A program made the position numbers and the translations under genes. Below, in pieces: positions 146 through 9,575 of a DNA stretch of 24,898 nt. The first letter of the stretch is position 1; the number at the start of each line of letters is the position of its first letter. Source of the DNA: a virus (Duplodnaviria > Heunggongvirae > Uroviricota > Caudoviricetes); the IMG/VR virus record IMGVR_UViG_2718218305_000013; one strand, written 5' to 3'. The notes under the pieces are model-generated. The model saw only the letters and a program-made list of their open reading frames with translations, was not told where the DNA came from and did no database searches.

Positions 146-355
146 AATAATCGCCACCAACACAATGATTTTAATACATAAATTAAAATAGAAGATTTAA
201 ACTACACACACCCCTATACACATTGGTGAAGGCGTTCGCTTTCCGCGCATTCTCAAGGCAGAAAAAACTTTTTTTGGGGGAAAACTGTTCATACTACTCA
301 TTGTGTTTTTTTTCATTAATATTCAAAAAGATATGAAATTAACGATTGATAAGAA

Positions 356-376
356 GTGAACACTTTACTGTTCACC
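356..376. repeat. Inverted pair of P4 type I iteron-like octamers (GTGAACA...TGTTCACC), candidate alpha-binding site
   Basis: gtgaacactttactgttcacc read directly; TGTTCACC is, as I recall it, the iteron bound by P4 alpha in ori/crr. Confidence 0.35.
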
Positions 377-675
377 TTGACTGATTAATAAGTGCATAAA
401 AACCTAATTTTTGAGCACGGAAGGTATTTGTTCCTTACCCCATTTTTTCTCTTTAGTCCAGTACAACAAAAAATGCGCCCAACAGAAAACTGTTTTGAAT
501 TTAAATGCAATCGCTTTGTAGTGATTGTAACGTAAGTTGATTTGATGGGTGCGATTTTGTTTAGCGATAATGGTATGTTGTAAAAATCATTTCGTTGCAA
601 TAAAATTGCATCGCTACATTTTATAGACAATATCAATTAAATTTTAATACTCATTATTAATTTTGAGGCTAACAA

Positions 676-1632
676 GTGACTAGTTATTCAAACTTTTCCA
701 ATCAAATAAAAGAAACCATCAATAATAAATTCGATCATGAAATTCATGATTGGGACATTATAAAAAACTCAATCACAACTTTAATAAATAAAAATATCCA
801 TGGTGCAGGTAGAAATATCGTTGATTTTATAGATTTAGGTAACTGGGATTTTATTTCAAACTTTTCCTTTGATGACTCTACAAGAAGACTTGAATTAGAG
901 TGGCACCCCAATGATAAATTCCATATATATATTGAGTCCGTTGTGTTTGTCGAGTTTAATGACACTATATATGCTTTCTTAAAGGGATACTATCACAATC
1001 AGTTATCTCTAAATAGAATATATAATACAAAATGCTCTTCATGTTCATTTGAAAACTCAGGTTCTTATATGGTAGACGTTTATAGAACGGTTAAAAGAGT
1101 AAATGAGACAATCCAGACCCCAAATATAAATTGCTATACTACATGTATTTTAACAAGGCCCGCAAATGGTCATGTTACATCTACAGGCTTCTCACGAAAC
1201 CTCATGGATGCGATAAATATTTCATTAGCAGAGCACAAAATAGCCTCTTTACATAATGAAGTCATGAGTATTGAGGAATATGATCGTGATTCTTTACAAG
1301 AGAAAGGAAATACTGCCAGGAGATATTTAGAATATATTCTCATGCTTGTTAATATTCGTATAATGCATTTAAACAACGTTCAATACCAAGAGCAAATGCT
1401 AGGTAGTTTAGTTTCTGTTATTGAGGCTCTGGACTATGAACCATTAATGAAAAATGATGTTGAAATTACAAAGGACATCCTTAATGCTTGCAGCCACCAC
1501 GGGGGGGTTAGAATTGAAAAGAAAGATGTAATTTTTTCTTTGGAAGTTATTGAAAACTTAATTAAAGCCATAAAGAAAACCGACATAAATAAATTACAAC
1601 TCGATGGGATGTTTAAATCAATTCAAAAATAA
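676..1632 (+). CDS. Hypothetical protein, 318 aa, AT-rich cargo gene with no motif I recognise
   Basis: Uninterrupted ORF with GTG start and GAGG about 8 nt upstream; much lower GC than the adjacent alpha gene; convergent with alpha. Confidence 0.55.
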   Translation: MTSYSNFSNQIKETINNKFDHEIHDWDIIKNSITTLINKNIHGAGRNIVDFIDLGNWDFISNFSFDDSTRRLELEWHPNDKFHIYIESVVFVEFNDTIYAFLKGYYHNQLSLNRIYNTKCSSCSFENSGSYMVDVYRTVKRVNETIQTPNINCYTTCILTRPANGHVTSTGFSRNLMDAINISLAEHKIASLHNEVMSIEEYDRDSLQEKGNTARRYLEYILMLVNIRIMHLNNVQYQEQMLGSLVSVIEALDYEPLMKNDVEITKDILNACSHHGGVRIEKKDVIFSLEVIENLIKAIKKTDINKLQLDGMFKSIQK

Positions 1633-1764: not shown

Positions 1765-4098
1765 TTATTTCGCTGCAAACTCATCGCATTTTGGCAACCA
1801 GTCAGCATTGCTTTCCTCTCTTAGGGCCAGATTAGTCTGCATTCCTTGATTGGTCCGTCGTTTCTCATACTGCAGCCCATATTCCTTGAGCATTAACGGT
1901 AGCCCCTTGCCAAACATGGTCAGACTGAGCGTATTTTTATAGCCGTTAGCCTCCATGTAGACCAGATAGGCATGGTAGAGGTAAGTTCGAGGCTGACGTG
2001 GAACAATATTAGCGTTCCCCATAAACATGCCCGTGGTGTCAGGTAGGACCTCAAGGTAGCCGCAAAAATCAAAAGCTGAATCAGCATCACGTTTGATGGT
2101 GAGCGCTTCATCGGAGTTCTGCTGTGACTGAAGCAATGTCCTGGCACTCATTGGGTCGCTGAAACGCTGCATAAGCTGGCGAACAATCACCGCTAGCTCA
2201 CTGGCAATTTTCTCTTTGAGCTGGGTATCGCGTTCCTCCGGGGCTATCTGGTCGGGGAAATGCAGGATCACCCTTCGGCGTGAAACTCCACCACTACGAT
2301 CAGTGAAGCGCATCGGATTATTGTTCACAGCCAGGATGACCGCCGGGATGTGGGTTGAATAGGCGTTCTGATATTTGGGATCAACGGATACCGCATCGCC
2401 GCCAGTGATGGCTTTTAGTCCGGCCCCGTCACCGCTCCACTTTTCCTGGTCGGGAAGTCGAATCAGTGAAAAACCTATTAACGCAGCTCGTTCTCTTGGC
2501 GACTCAAGCATTTCAATGGTTGCCGAGGTCGCGTTATCTTCACCCGCCAGCATGGTTGCTATTTCAGCAAGAATACTCTTTCCACTTCCGCCAGGGCCAG
2601 TGACCTCCAGAAACAGCTGCCAGTCATAACGGTTAGCCAGCACCATAAACAATGCAGCCAGAATAATGTCCCGTTTTTCAGGATTAAAACCTGCGGCACG
2701 ATCCAGCCAGCGCCAGAATGCCGGGGCATGGGTTTCCAGTGACTCACCGTCAACGGGCTGCGTGTAATCCACCTCGCACAGCGTACGTAACCAGTGCTTC
2801 TTATCGTGCGGGCTGAACAATCCTGTCCGGGTATCGAGCACACCGTTGCGAAATCCGATAAGTTGCCGCGCCGGATTCTGCTGTTGCGGAACGATCAGTT
2901 TGAGGGTTTCCACGAGAGACGCAATTTTCGCGGATGAAAAAGGTGCGTCGAGGCGCTGAAACAGCGCAGCGACATCACGGGCAAAATCGGCGTAATAGAT
3001 AACTTTCCAGGCCCCCGCCTCATAGCGTGAAAGGAGCTGCCCGTTCGGGTCTACTGCCAGTGAATTTTTATAGTGATCCACTACCCTCTGCGCTTTTTCG
3101 CTGACGCTCAGCGCGGTAAATTCAGCTTCGCTCATTGTGTCGAAGGGGCTGGCAACAGCTGGTTTTATTACTTCATGAATTGCATGCCGGGTGGCTTCTT
3201 CGCCGTTTTGCGTGAATGCATCGTTCCAGTCACCAAACACAGGCGGGAGCGCCATTGTGCAATTGCAGGCCCCGGTAACAGCTGCGCCCCTTGTTTGCCC
3301 CGCACCGTTGAGATCGCGGTCAGCAGCAATAATTATCTGGTGCGTTGGGTACTCACTGCAGGCAATGCTCGCCAGGGAAAGGAAATTGACGGACGAAAAG
3401 GCCACCATGACAGCATCGCCAGTCAGATAGTTGATAGTAAGTGCGGTGGCATATCCTTCCGCTATCCAGAGCCGTTTGGCTGCTTTGGCAGTACCTTCAA
3501 CCAGGTAAAAGGCATTCTTAACCTGACCGCCTTTAAGGAAGCATTTGCCCCCATTAGCGTTGATTAACTGCAGATTTACCAGCTCTCCATCTGCATACAA
3601 TGGAACGACAAGATCTCCCGCGCGAAATGCCACACCACCGACTTTATGCATAGCGGTTAATTCCCGGCAAGGCAGTGCAGGAAACCCTTTACTCGTCAGA
3701 TAGGCATTGCCAGTGGTCTGGCGGGACTTATCAAACAAACGGGCAGCCAGCACTGCTGCAGCTTTTCTCCCGTCCTCTTTTTCAGGAGAACCAGATTCAA
3801 GCATTCCCTGAGATACTGGCAGCAGGTTTCCGATAATGCCGTTTATTCTGTCTGCCGCTTCACTAATGCCTACATCCAGTACTTTACTTACAAGCGCCAG
3901 GCCATCACCTGCCCCGCACTGGTTACAGAACCACGTTCCCCGCCCTTCCTGGTCATCAAATCGAAAGCGGTCTTTCCCGGCACAGACCGGGCAGGGCTGG
4001 TGCCGATTTTTCAGTACATTTACGCCCAGCGCAGGTAAAATTCTTGACCAGTGACCCCGAGCTGCTTTCTCAGCCTGGCTAACTTTCATTCCTGACAT
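1765..4098 (-). CDS. alpha: P4 alpha-like primase/helicase (replication protein), 777 aa
   Basis: Start taken at internal ATG 4098 (MSGMKVSQ...), 13 nt downstream of the preceding gene; CPVCAGKDRFRF...CNQCG zinc-binding motif; Walker A GPGGSGKS; length and gene context match P4 alpha. Confidence 0.9.
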   Translation of the reverse strand: MSGMKVSQAEKAARGHWSRILPALGVNVLKNRHQPCPVCAGKDRFRFDDQEGRGTWFCNQCGAGDGLALVSKVLDVGISEAADRINGIIGNLLPVSQGMLESGSPEKEDGRKAAAVLAARLFDKSRQTTGNAYLTSKGFPALPCRELTAMHKVGGVAFRAGDLVVPLYADGELVNLQLINANGGKCFLKGGQVKNAFYLVEGTAKAAKRLWIAEGYATALTINYLTGDAVMVAFSSVNFLSLASIACSEYPTHQIIIAADRDLNGAGQTRGAAVTGACNCTMALPPVFGDWNDAFTQNGEEATRHAIHEVIKPAVASPFDTMSEAEFTALSVSEKAQRVVDHYKNSLAVDPNGQLLSRYEAGAWKVIYYADFARDVAALFQRLDAPFSSAKIASLVETLKLIVPQQQNPARQLIGFRNGVLDTRTGLFSPHDKKHWLRTLCEVDYTQPVDGESLETHAPAFWRWLDRAAGFNPEKRDIILAALFMVLANRYDWQLFLEVTGPGGSGKSILAEIATMLAGEDNATSATIEMLESPRERAALIGFSLIRLPDQEKWSGDGAGLKAITGGDAVSVDPKYQNAYSTHIPAVILAVNNNPMRFTDRSGGVSRRRVILHFPDQIAPEERDTQLKEKIASELAVIVRQLMQRFSDPMSARTLLQSQQNSDEALTIKRDADSAFDFCGYLEVLPDTTGMFMGNANIVPRQPRTYLYHAYLVYMEANGYKNTLSLTMFGKGLPLMLKEYGLQYEKRRTNQGMQTNLALREESNADWLPKCDEFAAK

Positions 4099-4111
4099 TG
4101 TGCGGCCCTCC

Positions 4112-4435
4112 TTAGTGCAGCGCTGGTTTGTTGAGGTGACGGGAACAAAGTTCATCCATGACCGTCATTCCGAGCAGTGAGAGAACCGGACAGGCTTTAA
4201 GCGGCCCCGACTCCATCAGATCCGAAAGCAACGCGCAGGCAATTTCCAGCCCTCTTTGCTGCCCATGCTGGCGCAGATAGAACCCTTCCAGCTCGCGGGC
4301 TATGGCATCTTCAAGTTCAGCGAGCGTCAGGCCGGAATAACGTTCCTGATGATTGCTTAGAGCCAGCCAGGCACAGGCAACGGCACGGCGATACAGAGCG
4401 GCACGAAGTGCCAGAAGAGATTCACAGCATATCAT
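4112..4435 (-). CDS. Hypothetical P4-like early-operon protein, 107 aa
   Basis: ATG at 4435 overlaps the upstream stop (TGATG); in an operon with alpha. Confidence 0.5.
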
Positions 4436-4656
4436 CAGGCCACCTCCGCATTCATCAGGTCGTCATGGCAGCGTTGCACCACTCCATCCAGTTGCTCTGT
4501 CATCAGATAAATGAGGGAAACCAGTTGTTCGCATTGGGCACCTGCTGGCTTTTCATAACAGTCCTGCAGGACTGCCATGCCAGTTACATACTCACCCACA
4601 TTGCGTAAATGTTTCAGCCTTACAACATCGTCGTAGGAAATCTCAAACTGGTTCAT
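4435..4656 (-). CDS. Hypothetical small protein, 73 aa
   Basis: ATG at 4656 overlaps the upstream gene's stop (ATGA); translationally coupled chain leading to alpha. Confidence 0.5.
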
Positions 4657-4847
4657 AGCGTCACCTCCCCGGCAGGCAGCCGTGCAGAAAGGGAGAGTAC
4701 ATAATCTCGGACTAGCAAACGGCGCGCGGAACGCTCATCGCAGGAGACAGTGCGAAGCATACAGATGCGGGGGTGAGTGTCAGCACGGCGGATTGCGGCA
4801 AACACAAAGACATATTGCGGGTGTGACGGGGTGAGGATTGTAGCCAT
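4653..4847 (-). CDS. Hypothetical small protein, 64 aa (only the 3' part of the 185-codon ORF 4653..5210)
   Basis: ATG verified at 4847 ([11 protein letters not shown]...); the upstream 120 codons of the long ORF look non-coding (GC-rich hairpins). Confidence 0.45.
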
Positions 4848-5206
4848 GATGGCAGCCTCCAATAAGTAGCGGTTATTGCTACCACCGGAAACGCCAATTT
4901 CACTGGTGGCAGCCCGAACGGGGTTGGCGTAACCGGCCTTATTGGAAACCGGCCAGCCCGAAGGCTGCCCCGCCCGGACTACCATTATCTCGATAGAACC
5001 ATGGTGTAAGCATAAACACCACAGCCCTGAAAATGGTTGTGCCTGAGCTACGACGTAAAAAAAGACGCAAGGGGCGTCAATTGTCGCCAATAAGTTATAC
5101 GGAACGCCAATTCCGGCTGCCGATTTTGCGACAGCGGAAAAACTATACCTGGAAATGACGACAGTAAGCAAGCCAGAATAAAGGTATTTAATGTATGCAG
5201 GTATCA

Positions 5207-6400: not shown

Positions 6401-7153
6401 ATGACAATCCCAGAACAGAACAATAACCCGATCGTTGAAATTTCTATCCCTGTTTCGACGCAACAGGCGCTTGAGAAAGTGAATGCCACCAAATCTGCAT
6501 GGCTTGAAGCACGTCGTCAGCAAAAAGCGGCAGCGGATAATATTGCGACAATCCGCCAGCGCCGCGCTGAAATGGAAGCCACGACGAACGCCCTGAATGA
6601 GGAGTGGCGCACGCTATTTCGTGAAAGTCAGGGCGTAGTCTCAAAGGAAATGAAAAAACTGCGCACGGAAATTGCGCTGGGACGAGAAACGCTTGAGGAT
6701 TTTGATGAGCTGCTGGCGGCTCAGGAAAGCGAAAATGCACTTTTGCCGCAGGAGGCTGCGGAATTAGCCGGAAAGTATATCCACGCGCACGACACCCTTG
6801 TGGGTATTCGCGCAAAACAAATCTGGGAAGATTTTATGCAGTCGCATGGAAAAGCACTAATCCAGACACTAAGCCTGCTCAAATCAACAATGGGCAGGGA
6901 AGCCAGCGCAGTTGTCGGTGTGGTGCATTCAGTTAATGACCCGGACACACTGCTGAAAGATTTTATTCATAAACATATCACCAGACCGGCTCTGACTAAC
7001 GATGCGATGCCCGAACAGGACCCCGTGTTTAAACTGGCGGGAGTTGCCCCGGATTATGCGGCCCGTCTGGATTTCAGTAATAAACTCTCTCCAGCAGCTA
7101 TGCATAAAATGAAGGTTCGTCAGGAACGTGCTGAGAAGGAGAAAGCAGTATGA
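6401..7153 (+). CDS. sid: Sid-like capsid size-determination protein (putative), 250 aa
   Basis: First gene of the late operon, ATGA overlap with the next gene; size and position as P4 sid; shares KSAWLEARRQ / EDFMQSHGKAL-type segments with the Psu-like protein. Confidence 0.5.
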   Translation: MTIPEQNNNPIVEISIPVSTQQALEKVNATKSAWLEARRQQKAAADNIATIRQRRAEMEATTNALNEEWRTLFRESQGVVSKEMKKLRTEIALGRETLEDFDELLAAQESENALLPQEAAELAGKYIHAHDTLVGIRAKQIWEDFMQSHGKALIQTLSLLKSTMGREASAVVGVVHSVNDPDTLLKDFIHKHITRPALTNDAMPEQDPVFKLAGVAPDYAARLDFSNKLSPAAMHKMKVRQERAEKEKAV

Positions 7154-7701
7154 TGGCCCGAGTCACTCCAGACCAAGCGCTTATCAGTTTTAGAAATGCC
7201 CGTATTCTGTGGGCTGGACATAGTGAGAGCCGAAAAGCCGTTGAACAACAGATAGAATCACTCCTCACTGCCATGGAAAAACCAGCAGATTATGCTCGAC
7301 AGCTCGAATTACAGCGGGAACATCTGGATGTGCTGAAATGGCAAATTAACTGTGCTGCGCGCGAATGCATTTACTCGCAGCATCAACTGATGGAGGCCTG
7401 CACAGAAGACGCTCTCAGCAATTTTATGCAGGCGAATGGAGCAGCCCTGACATCTGCACTGGCTCCGTTCCTGAAGGGGCGCGGAGGGGTTGACGTTGCG
7501 TCCCGTATATTACGCAATGCTCTGGTTCGCCAGCTGGCAATAACACCGCCTGAAATTGCCGGGGATTATCGTATGATTCTGGATGAATCCGGTGTGATGC
7601 CTGACCCCATGATGGTTCGTGATTGCCAGAGCTCTTACACCCCTGCACAACAACTGCGCTTTCAGCAACGTCTGGATTACATTAACGGCATGCAGGAGTA
7701 A
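7150..7701 (+). CDS. psu: Psu-like polarity-suppression / capsid-decoration protein, 183 aa
   Basis: Segments KWQINCAA, FMQANGAALTSALAPFL and YTPAQQ resemble P4 Psu as I remember it; size matches. Confidence 0.65.
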   Translation: MMARVTPDQALISFRNARILWAGHSESRKAVEQQIESLLTAMEKPADYARQLELQREHLDVLKWQINCAARECIYSQHQLMEACTEDALSNFMQANGAALTSALAPFLKGRGGVDVASRILRNALVRQLAITPPEIAGDYRMILDESGVMPDPMMVRDCQSSYTPAQQLRFQQRLDYINGMQE

Positions 7702-7706
7702 TATTA

Positions 7707-7979
7707 ATGGCACTTAAATGTCCCGAATGCGGTACGACGGCACACGCCAGAACCTCCGCCTATGAAGCACCATCGGTTAAACGCTCATGGTATCAGTGCC
7801 AGAATCTTGAATGTTCCTACACATTTACCGCACTGGAAAGTGTGGATACGATAATCATGAAGCCCCGGCGCAATGAACAGGAATCAGAGAAAGCACAAAT
7901 GCCGGAAAAACAACAGCAAACTCTCAATCGCTATGGCTCCGCGTCAAAGCTGTCAAGCCGTCAGCAAATTCCTGTCTGA
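7707..7979 (+). CDS. delta: Ogr/Delta-family zinc-finger late-gene transcriptional activator, 90 aa
   Basis: MALKCPECGTTAHARTS...YQCQNLECSYTFTALESV is the classic Ogr/Delta Cys4 motif. Confidence 0.85.
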   Translation: MALKCPECGTTAHARTSAYEAPSVKRSWYQCQNLECSYTFTALESVDTIIMKPRRNEQESEKAQMPEKQQQTLNRYGSASKLSSRQQIPV

Positions 7980-8388: not shown

Positions 8389-8955
8389 TTAAACAGGATA
8401 AAAACCAGAGCTTCCATTCTTATTTAAGTTATGGATTTTATTTGCATCATTAATTTTTATTTGGAACGTCGGACCTTTATTCTCAAGAATTACAATCTGG
8501 AAATTATAGTCCCTTTTGATTAATGCGTGATAAAATGAATCACTGAGACTGACGCTATTAACATCCGATAGAGAACCCCCTCTATCTTTATCAAAGTGCG
8601 TCACTAATGGACTATCAAGCACAACAAATCCAATGAATGGATTCCCTTTTCTTGATAAAAATTCCGCAAAGCAAATGGTAAATATAGCATGCATTACTGC
8701 ACGGGTACCTTTACCAAACATTCCTCGGCGTTTCCCATTGATATTAAAGTCATATGTATCTTCGTCAAATCGCACTTTGTTATCTTTAGAATTTTCAAAA
8801 TTTATATCATTCAAAAAGTCTTGCATCGCTATTTCTATATCATACAAATCAGCTACTGTTAAGGAGTCAAAGTCCTCGGCGGAGTATTTAAGTTCGTCAA
8901 CATCATCTTCTTTATCTTGTAATGAAGATAGAATGCTATGTTTTGTGTGATCCAT
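8389..8955 (-). CDS. Cassette gene F: C-terminal ABC/SMC-like ATPase head (Walker B region), 188 aa
   Basis: FIGFVVLDSPLVTHFD (Walker B-like hhhhDsP plus D-loop) preceded by a GKGTRAVMHAIF signature-like segment; ATG overlaps the E stop (TAATG); very AT-rich. Confidence 0.6.
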   Translation of the reverse strand: MDHTKHSILSSLQDKEDDVDELKYSAEDFDSLTVADLYDIEIAMQDFLNDINFENSKDNKVRFDEDTYDFNINGKRRGMFGKGTRAVMHAIFTICFAEFLSRKGNPFIGFVVLDSPLVTHFDKDRGGSLSDVNSVSLSDSFYHALIKRDYNFQIVILENKGPTFQIKINDANKIHNLNKNGSSGFYPV

Positions 8956-9545
8956 TAAAAGATTGTCTTTATATTCATAAAGTGATTCAAGAGATGAATG
9001 TATTGTTTTATATTTTTATCTTCTAACGTCTTAAAATCACTTTTTTCTGATTGATAAATTTCATTAACATCATTTTTTCTTAACATAATTAATTCATGTT
9101 CGCGAACATTAGATCCGATTGATTCAATTAATCCTTTCAGCTGGCTTTTGATTTTCAATTTTTCTGCATTACACGACAAAAAACAATCATCATATGATAT
9201 TTCATTTTCTTTTTTTTGCGGTGTATTACAGAACTCACAATAAATATCTGCAAAATTATTTAAATAGAAATTCGCCTGTGATACAACATCTATTCTTTGT
9301 AGATCTATAAAGTATTGGTCTTTAAGAAGACTAAATCTTTCAATGAGTAATGATAAGTATTTTTCCCTGTCACTGATTGAATATAATTCATCACTTAACT
9401 CTTTTAATAATTGCTTCTTATCATCAAGTGCATCAACAATACCTTTCAATATATCTTTCGATGATTCAATATCTTGCTCTACTTTCTCAAGTTCTCTTGA
9501 AACAATGACTTGATCATATTCAGGATAAATTAATTGCGCTTTCAA
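8955..9545 (-). CDS. Cassette gene E: coiled-coil segment of the SMC-like ATPase; in frame with D across a single TAA
   Basis: Heptad-rich, charged sequence; the track start is TTG with no usable RBS; the D frame continues into E across one in-frame TAA at 9576-9578. Confidence 0.5.
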   Translation of the reverse strand: MKAQLIYPEYDQVIVSRELEKVEQDIESSKDILKGIVDALDDKKQLLKELSDELYSISDREKYLSLLIERFSLLKDQYFIDLQRIDVVSQANFYLNNFADIYCEFCNTPQKKENEISYDDCFLSCNAEKLKIKSQLKGLIESIGSNVREHELIMLRKNDVNEIYQSEKSDFKTLEDKNIKQYIHLLNHFMNIKTIF

Positions 9546-9575
9546 TTCCTCATAAATATTTGCAATTTGATTTTT

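Follow-up and report, generated by a model that had tools for sequence, protein, structure and literature searches.

A HEPN-fold protein encoded in the primase-att slot of the P4-like satellite Sp2 as a candidate stand-alone abortive-infection effector of Escherichia coli O157:H7

RNases that cut tRNA anticodon loops, among them PrrC, RloC, ApeA and HepS, provide the closest described counterparts of the protein analyzed here, the 318-amino-acid (aa) product of ECs_0304, a gene of the P4-like satellite Sp2 contained in a 24,898-nucleotide (nt) stretch of viral DNA (IMG/VR record IMGVR_UViG_2718218305_000013; hereafter the window, at its full length). Anticodon-nuclease activity requires each of Arg320, Glu324 and His356 in PrrC and each of Arg692, Glu696 and His737 in RloC, the RloC residues following the motif 'Arg-X3-Glu-X36-52-His (where Ser often precedes His)'. 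The published survey of HEPN domains describes an Rx4-6H motif that closes helix 3, with a polar N, D or H usually following the arginine, and an adjacent acidic residue on helix 2 (Ex3[KR]); families that keep the histidine and lack the arginine are predicted to be active if they conserve another basic residue, with Parep1/8 and c2405 as precedents. Catalytic HEPN domains act as metal-independent endoRNases whose active site is a composite one formed across a dimer. HepS, the 'HEPN solo' abortive-infection anticodon nuclease of the Gifsy-1 prophage, consists of a single HEPN domain with the canonical motif R100-x4-H105 and is activated by the tail-tip protein J, and its family definition excludes homologues of more than 250 aa. 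ApeA is mostly alpha-helical, comprises N, Mid and split-HEPN domains with the canonical active-site arginine R502, forms doughnut-shaped oligomers and is gated by deoxydinucleotides, a ligand pocket involving the N-domain switching on anticodon cleavage; the HEPN domain of Ec2ApeA ends near residue 583. The slot between primase and att, in which ECs_0304 lies, is a published minor defence hotspot of P4 satellites (Moura de Sousa et al., NAR 2026).

Combining sequence comparison with a structural model, we consider it on balance probable that ECs_0304 is a stand-alone, two-domain, sensor-gated HEPN RNase that serves as an abortive-infection effector and travels as satellite cargo. A previous reading of the window, made from its letters alone (the sequence-only reading), had raised the possibility of a single-gene abortive-infection or defence factor. 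A function as a single-gene anti-phage factor is plausible, and the defence reading is now better founded because the protein has a predicted HEPN fold with an invariant triad like that of PrrC and RloC, because its gene has no recurring partner, and because it occupies a published minor hotspot. RNase activity, the substrate, gating by the N-terminal domain and the anti-phage role are what we infer from these properties. The gene and its main features are as follows:

676-1632 (+): gene ECs_0304 (WP_000205213.1), supported by the list of open reading frames (ORFs), RefSeq annotation, homologues and selection
665-668 (+): Shine-Dalgarno sequence GAGG, 7 nt 5' of the GTG start codon, read from the sequence
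676-1170 (+): N-terminal domain, residues 1-165, with two helices and about ten beta strands in a predicted YojF/HemS-ChuX/PH-like fold
1183-1629 (+): C-terminal domain, residues 170-318, with a predicted HEPN fold
1309-1344 (+): helix-2 motif N212-T-A-R215-R-Y-L-E219-Y-I-L-M223, containing the invariant Arg-x3-Glu
1480-1506 (+): end-of-helix-3 motif L269-N270-A-C-S273-H274-H-G-G277, at the place of the HEPN Rx4-6H motif

The two domains are seen in an AlphaFold2 model based on 34 homologues (predicted local distance difference test score 88.6, predicted template-modelling score 0.84). In this model the C-terminal domain has the HEPN fold, which places it in the superfamily at the level of structure, and the N-terminal domain, whose conserved residues are G45, D50, F51, D53, W57 and D58, is a putative sensor or regulatory domain. 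The sequence-only reading had recognized no motif and had named remote-homology and structure prediction as the way to check the gene. For sequence libraries the absence of a motif stands, and it is understandable because only structure prediction reveals the HEPN domain; structure prediction yields both this domain and its YojF/PH-like companion. A profile of the C-terminal domain retrieved nothing except coiled-coil noise from PDB sequences and, in a second, word-indexed protein search, only fragments of the ECs_0304 family. Foldseek found no match among viral structures (BFVD) at E<=1e-3, and a Pfam scan of 20 family members lengthened at the N or C terminus detected no informative fused domain, only a faint DUF3775.

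The likely catalytic residues, judged by conservation and helix position, are R215 and E219 on helix 2 and S273-H274 at the end of helix 3. R215 is present in 135 of 136 relatives and E219 in 134 of 136, the latter supplying the acidic helix-2 residue of catalytic HEPN domains; position 223 is Lys in 97 of these 136 sequences, completing an Ex3[KR] motif, and Met in the O157 clade. H274 is found in all 127 relatives that cover the region, S273 in 121 and N270 in 124, and the histidine sits where a HEPN motif is expected, in the loop that follows the end of helix 261-273. The pattern R-x3-E-x48-70-(S)H is shared by all 127 members, and its exact form R-x3-E...N-x2-S-H by 117, at pairwise identities down to ~17-25%. 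Pfam scans of 43 family members gave matches to AAA_13, the PrrC/RloC model, in four, to DUF4145 in two and to HEPN_AbiA_CTD in one; these matches are hints rather than proof, and for the O157 protein itself Pfam reports no AAA_13 match. The proposed residue correspondence between ECs_0304 and PrrC/RloC is built on the motif, on helix position and on one sub-threshold AAA_13 alignment.

Several observations weigh against this assignment and against a role in defence. That alignment, of the C-terminal domain of one family member to AAA_13 positions 628-688 of 713, runs from R-x3-E through S-H with an E-value of 0.0013, but its 18 bits lie far below the cut-off of 36. The arginine of the canonical Rx4-6H motif is replaced by Leu or Ala, with no R or K at -4 to -6 in 122 of the 127 relatives, so that the motif of catalytic HEPN domains is incomplete, the His and the polar Asn being retained. 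The E-to-H spacing of 48-70 residues (mode 53-54) mostly falls just beyond the RloC range of 36-52, and the HEPN survey notes that some families without the full motif are non-catalytic. The whole protein matched nothing above threshold in Pfam, PADLOC-DB v2 (0 families), PHROGs, NCBIfam or a phmmer search of the PDB, and neither ECs0304 nor WP_000205213 is mentioned in any paper of the searched literature. The family is nearly absent from phage and plasmid collections, and some members lie in lone, unremarkable chromosomal islets or in a polysaccharide locus. Finally, in a 99%-identical satellite copy (L117, IMG/VR UViG_2923272612_000005) the ECs_0304 homologue, at 905-1853, is disrupted by 8 or more indels, one of them a 4-nt deletion within the EKGNTARR motif, while the 575 nt upstream carry none. 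The left flank of that satellite differs from that of Sp2 and its alpha gene is intact (99.7% aa identity); the disruption is either that of a pseudogenized copy or a sequencing artefact.

The replacement of the Rx4-6H arginine throughout the family, together with the survey's remark on families that lack the motif, would suit a non-catalytic HEPN protein, that is, an RNA- or ligand-binding regulator of the host or the element rather than a killer of cells, as has been proposed for MtlR-type and nucleotidyltransferase-fused HEPN proteins. The resemblance of the N-terminal domain to ligand-binding folds (HemS/ChuX, PH) points the same way. We nevertheless regard this explanation as unlikely, because Arg, Glu and His stay the same in all 127 sequences, very divergent as these are, and form a pattern proven to be catalytic in PrrC and RloC, and because the family is under purifying selection. 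Arginine-less families of the kind cited above are, moreover, predicted to be active, and the mobile, patchy and island-borne distribution of the family is unlike that of a regulator.

The sequence-only reading had called the gene an orphan, which is incorrect. At 90% identity the related proteins group into 36 clusters, drawn from Citrobacter, Providencia, Pantoea, Pectobacterium, Proteus, Aeromonas, Enterobacter, Serratia, Salmonella, Klebsiella and Buttiauxella; at 50% identity (E<=1e-3) there are 152 representatives, mostly rare metagenomic sequences and none of them annotated. Within E. coli, ECs_0304 DNA occurs in 306 of 5426 complete genomes, essentially those of the O157:H7/O55:H7 lineage. 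DNA homology to the closest relative is confined to the coding sequence (674-1626), and the family gene has a GC content of 29-35% in every Enterobacterales host examined, the Serratia locus itself being at 61.5%. Family members are found on an integrative and conjugative element beside a methylase, ArdC and a type I restriction-modification (R-M) system; in a Pantoea prophage; directly after a thrW integrase and beside the PADLOC candidate PDC-M60; adjoining an MmeI-type R-M system; on an AlpA/integrase island; and among ParE and MNT-HepT modules. No neighbour recurs among the 13 flanking ORFs of nine homologue loci, and ECs_0304, having no conserved partner gene, would act as a stand-alone unit. 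In other E. coli, at thrW (L010 6715-14327, L116 4718-6948), a 45%-identical member lies just 3' of a P4-type integrase sharing 63% identity with that of Sp2; it faces a three-gene cluster encoding a Y4jQ-domain protein of 1091 aa, a receiver-like protein of 149 aa and a protein of 387 aa, the last of which matches PDC-M60.

These contexts also bear on whether ECs_0304 might be a selfish module of the toxin or addiction type, in which an RNase toxin, inhibited by its own N-terminal domain, stabilizes its carrier elements rather than defending against phages. HEPN is a toxin fold in HepT, the family always resides on or near mobile or variable DNA, and one homologue is located among ParE and MNT-HepT modules. 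Addiction, however, needs differential stability, which is impossible with a single polypeptide; no antitoxin-like neighbour is conserved, and the slot and its neighbours are enriched in defence genes, not in toxin-antitoxin pairs. We find such a module improbable as the explanation, the two roles not being exclusive.

ECs_0304 is a genuine protein-coding gene under strong purifying selection, given that an open frame of 318 codons is improbable by chance (~2e-12 for its base composition) and that comparison with the 80%-identical Citrobacter homologue (pN 0.12, pS 0.71) gives a dN/dS of ~0.06; dN/dS estimates range over ~0.06-0.2. The ORF is annotated in E. coli O157:H7 Sakai as a 'hypothetical protein' (NP_308331.1), and the ORFs that overlap it in the remaining frames reach at most 73 aa. 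As the sequence-only reading had described, it starts at a GTG preceded by a good ribosome-binding site; this GTG is the earliest start codon past the upstream stop. In the Citrobacter homologue TTGAGGC likewise precedes the ATG, and homologues have their start codon, mostly ATG, at the aligned position. The strong AT-richness and the convergence with alpha that it reported also hold, with a GC content of 0.313 for the ORF against 0.523 for alpha (0.441 for the whole window) and a hairpin shared between the two genes. The signals flanking the gene are:

379-675 (+): AT-rich, non-coding upstream section of the cargo module, starting where homology to sister satellites stops (~378)
1732-1762 (no strand assigned): GC-rich hairpin, equivalent of the P4 terminator t-alpha, conserved with P4 4604-4628
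1765-4098/4155 (-): alpha primase-helicase gene, the conserved right border of the cargo slot, homology to other satellites beginning within ~20 nt of the alpha stop

The upstream section presumably holds the ECs_0304 promoter. Promoter-like hexamers occur at 542-571, 578-606 and 624-651, and seven sites were found against 9.5 expected by chance in shuffled sequence, with no enrichment, so that the scan is uninformative in this AT-rich DNA. The only ORFs 5' of ECs_0304, of 47 and 83 aa (385-636), lie in DNA that is absent from the locus of the nearest homologue, and there is no ORF of at least 40 aa between 1632 and alpha. The hairpin, the sole terminator-like one noted, is situated 100 nt past the ECs_0304 stop and 3 nt past that of alpha, and given these distances it probably terminates both convergent genes.

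The state of the main hotspot of Sp2 (8389-11665, -) offers a comparison. PADLOC identifies there a Lamassu system with LmuA, LmuC and LmuB. LmuB is broken up into three ORFs (9576-10208, 8955-9545 and 8389-8955, corresponding to model positions 3-199, 231-412 and 428-608), LmuA (10659-11276) spans only model positions 141-333, and the Sakai annotation marks ECs_0293 as a pseudogene; for these reasons the Lamassu system appears to have decayed while ECs_0304 remained intact. Such decay deserves attention because pseudogenes are reportedly rare in P4 hotspots. Two alleles of different length were seen among the E. coli records: a 930-nt, in-frame allele, 27 nt shorter and 97.2% identical (NZ_CP034808.1, 999300-1000229), and a 956-nt variant with a possible 1-nt frameshift (NZ_CP015853.1, 2373711-2374666).

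The fragmented Lamassu genes and the disrupted copy of ECs_0304 in the near-identical L117 satellite, together with 31% GC, a GTG start and promoter-like sites at chance frequency, could indicate silent or decaying cargo, an intact frame that is unexpressed (H-NS silencing of AT-rich DNA being one way) and currently serves no function in O157:H7. We deem this very unlikely because the triad is invariant and the family is under strong purifying selection; in addition, 305 of 307 E. coli records carrying the gene are at least 99% identical throughout the O157:H7/O55:H7 lineage, whereas LmuB nearby has decayed.

ECs_0304 is exchangeable, horizontally acquired cargo in a variable satellite slot. 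Together with ~300 nt upstream it forms a 1.35-kb insertion (379-1731) between a crr-like unit and the alpha terminator, a gap that measures 13 nt in P4. Two E. coli satellites at the chromosomal site of Sp2 (L019 and L021), with alpha DNA 92% and ~79% identical, carry in the slot a 365-aa SIR2-like gene on the opposite strand (3789-4886 in both; PADLOC SIR2 E-value 4e-9, no Pfam match), and in a third sister satellite crr runs directly into the terminator, leaving the slot empty. The main hotspot of L019 and L021 holds a different system (SIR2-family or Drt3b), so that each of them carries two cargo loci. The suggestion of horizontally acquired cargo in the sequence-only reading, which had proposed checking whether related P4-like elements hold different genes at this position, is upheld by these sister satellites, by homology limited to the coding sequence and by AT-richness in all Enterobacterales hosts examined. 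Across 80 alpha-bearing loci from other species, the 2 kb that follow alpha contain 98 ORFs, which group into 77 clusters. Among them are defence genes (NsnB, OLD/AriA/Gabija-type ATPases, PtuA, defence reverse transcriptases, TIR, SIR2_2, Mrr and Fic) as well as integrases from adjacent elements and housekeeping genes of the flanks, and no member of the ECs_0304 family. Least probable of all is a life-cycle gene through which Sp2 exploits or interferes with a P2-like helper, for example by degrading helper transcripts: ECs_0304 does lie inside the satellite beside the replication gene alpha, and effects of P4 cargo on helpers and on competing phages are known, but the slot holds no family member in any of the 80 other alpha-bearing satellites, the gene is missing from sister satellites whose alpha DNA is 92% identical, and the other family members examined reside outside P4-like satellites, except for the near-identical L117 copy of Sp2.

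Many E. coli O157:H7 chromosomes contain the window in identical form, and ECs_0304 falls inside the curated 'prophage Sp2, P4-like phage' of strain Sakai, which forms a tandem with the lambda-like remnant Sp1 on the downstream side of the tRNA-Thr gene thrW and has the gene order of P4. The further elements of Sp2 are:

127-143 (no strand assigned): left att core, a 17-nt copy of the thrW 3' end (reverse complement), TGGTGCGATAATAGGAA, located by its match to the thrW flank
203-224 (+): arm-type direct repeat with its partner at 12881-12902 (family D6, 86% identity), inside the att cores
257-378 (+): one crr-like unit, a poly-A/T tract followed by TGTTCA... and GTGAACA...TGTTCACC octamers, from comparison with P4 4291-4410
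between alpha and sid: DUF5375 gene, Icd-like gene and helix-turn-helix regulator gene, listed in P4-like order
6401-7979 (+): sid, psu and delta
8389-11665 (-): cargo block, the int-psu main hotspot
11669-12850 (-): integrase
13013-13029: right att core, followed by the 47-nt 3' half of tRNA-Thr

The att cores coincide exactly with the Sakai limits of Sp2, 323514 and 310628, and the window contains no intact tRNA. ECs_0304 does lie between alpha and the left att side, as the sequence-only reading had it, and inside these cores; a position outside Sp2 is ruled out, the interval 1632-1765 containing no att-like sequence. The statement that P4 itself carries int in this slot is mistaken, because P4 has crr repeats and t-alpha between attP and alpha, with int on the far side of attP; upon integration int comes to lie at the far end, as does the Sp2 integrase. 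The 'left att-like repeat' of that reading is probably 203-224. As an att site this repeat and its partner are ruled out, since thrW and the Sakai annotation place the cores at 127-143 and 13013-13029; it is probably an integrase arm site, given its place between the att cores, its conservation among sister satellites and the comparable attP arm repeats of the P4 annotation. The crr-like unit, a homologue of the 120-bp crr repeat of P4, is where conserved satellite sequence gives way to the cargo.

Within the cargo module, ~100 nt 5' of ECs_0304, positions 537-575 hold a third sequence of thrW-att type, AGTTGATTTGATGGGTGCGATTTT...GATAATGG. It resembles the left att flank and core (115-143); no places other than 117-135 and 537-555 show the pattern, and two matches arose in 0 of 100 shuffles. 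Recombination between elements integrated in tandem at thrW may have left it behind as a relic. At the other end, the 47-nt tRNA-Thr 3' half (13013-13060) marks the junction between Sp2 and Sp1, whose part of the window (13030-~23600) contains CI/Cro/CII genes, broken O/P genes, tail-fibre genes, the pinE invertase gene and a gene for a GIY-YIG protein. Matches to the window in 3873 of 5426 E. coli genomes mostly concern the thrW flank (1-142, matched in 3673 genomes) and do not reflect satellite spread; alpha-like DNA occurs in 375 genomes, against 306 for the ECs_0304 ORF.

Under the reading of ECs_0304 as a sensor-gated HEPN RNase, the N-terminal YojF/PH-like domain, in place of the ABC-ATPase of PrrC and RloC, would keep the RNase latent until it senses a phage protein or a small molecule as the sign of infection. 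The activated enzyme would then cleave RNA of the cell, with tRNA anticodon loops, the target of its described counterparts, as the most likely substrate; translation would stop and the infection would be aborted, to the benefit of the lysogen population and of the satellite. The proposed gating would follow the logic of the ATPase in PrrC and RloC, the pocket of ApeA and the tail-tip protein of HepS. More tentatively, and on the doubtful side of possible, ECs_0304 may found a family of miniature, ATPase-less anticodon nucleases ('mini-PrrC'), in which the active-site arginine would have moved from the Rx4-6H motif to helix 2 and the PH/YojF-like domain would directly sense a phage-derived protein or metabolite, providing single-gene abortive infection in O157:H7 and in mobile elements of Enterobacterales. 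If these proposals are correct, a gene labelled 'hypothetical' in every O157:H7 genome since 2001 would encode a new single-gene anti-phage RNase, with an unusual HEPN active-site layout and a sensor domain not yet seen in defence systems, extending the modes by which HEPN domains are gated. It would also provide a concrete, uncharacterized example for the poorly populated primase-att hotspot of P4-like satellites, and could influence the susceptibility of O157:H7 to therapeutic or biocontrol phages.

Comparison with described systems delimits these proposals. ECs_0304 belongs to neither ApeA nor HepS by sequence or whole architecture: no sequence relationship to HepS and Tha was detected, and unlike HepS it has an additional N-terminal domain and lacks the canonical arginine. 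It shares with ApeA the combination of an N-terminal region of no known family and a C-terminal HEPN domain in one polypeptide, yet its N-terminal domain is beta-rich, and the PADLOC scan returned no match of any kind. The locus also differs from MNT-HEPN (HepT/MntA) pairs, having no minimal nucleotidyltransferase antitoxin, either adjacent or fused. Retention of the histidine without the arginine, with another conserved basic residue proposed to compensate, is shared with Parep1/8 and c2405 (the DUF4145-like group); c2405, however, has an N-terminal AbiTii domain and Parep1/8 is archaeal, and ECs_0304 has neither domain nor a significant match. Like other cargo of the primase-att hotspot (Moura de Sousa et al., NAR 2026), it sits between alpha and att in a slot whose content differs among close satellites, although PADLOC-DB v2 (0 families) assigns it to no recognized defence system; judged by the architectures given in the main text of that paper, it differs from Crouga, Bandua, Aernus, Toga, Reve and Hailong. 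With respect to PrrC and RloC, its 318 aa contain no ABC-ATPase, Walker motif or zinc hook and have a 165-aa YojF/PH-like beta domain instead; the AAA_13 threshold is not reached, the gene in O157 has no type I R-M linkage, and its family has lost the Rx4-6H arginine that the HEPN survey has PrrC and RloC keep. Its proposed catalytic signature, Arg-x3-Glu followed after ~50 residues by (Ser)-His within the predicted C-terminal HEPN-fold domain, resembles that of PrrC and RloC, some of its relatives adjoin R-M systems and ArdC, and it is proposed to be, like them, a latent RNase restrained by an N-terminal module.

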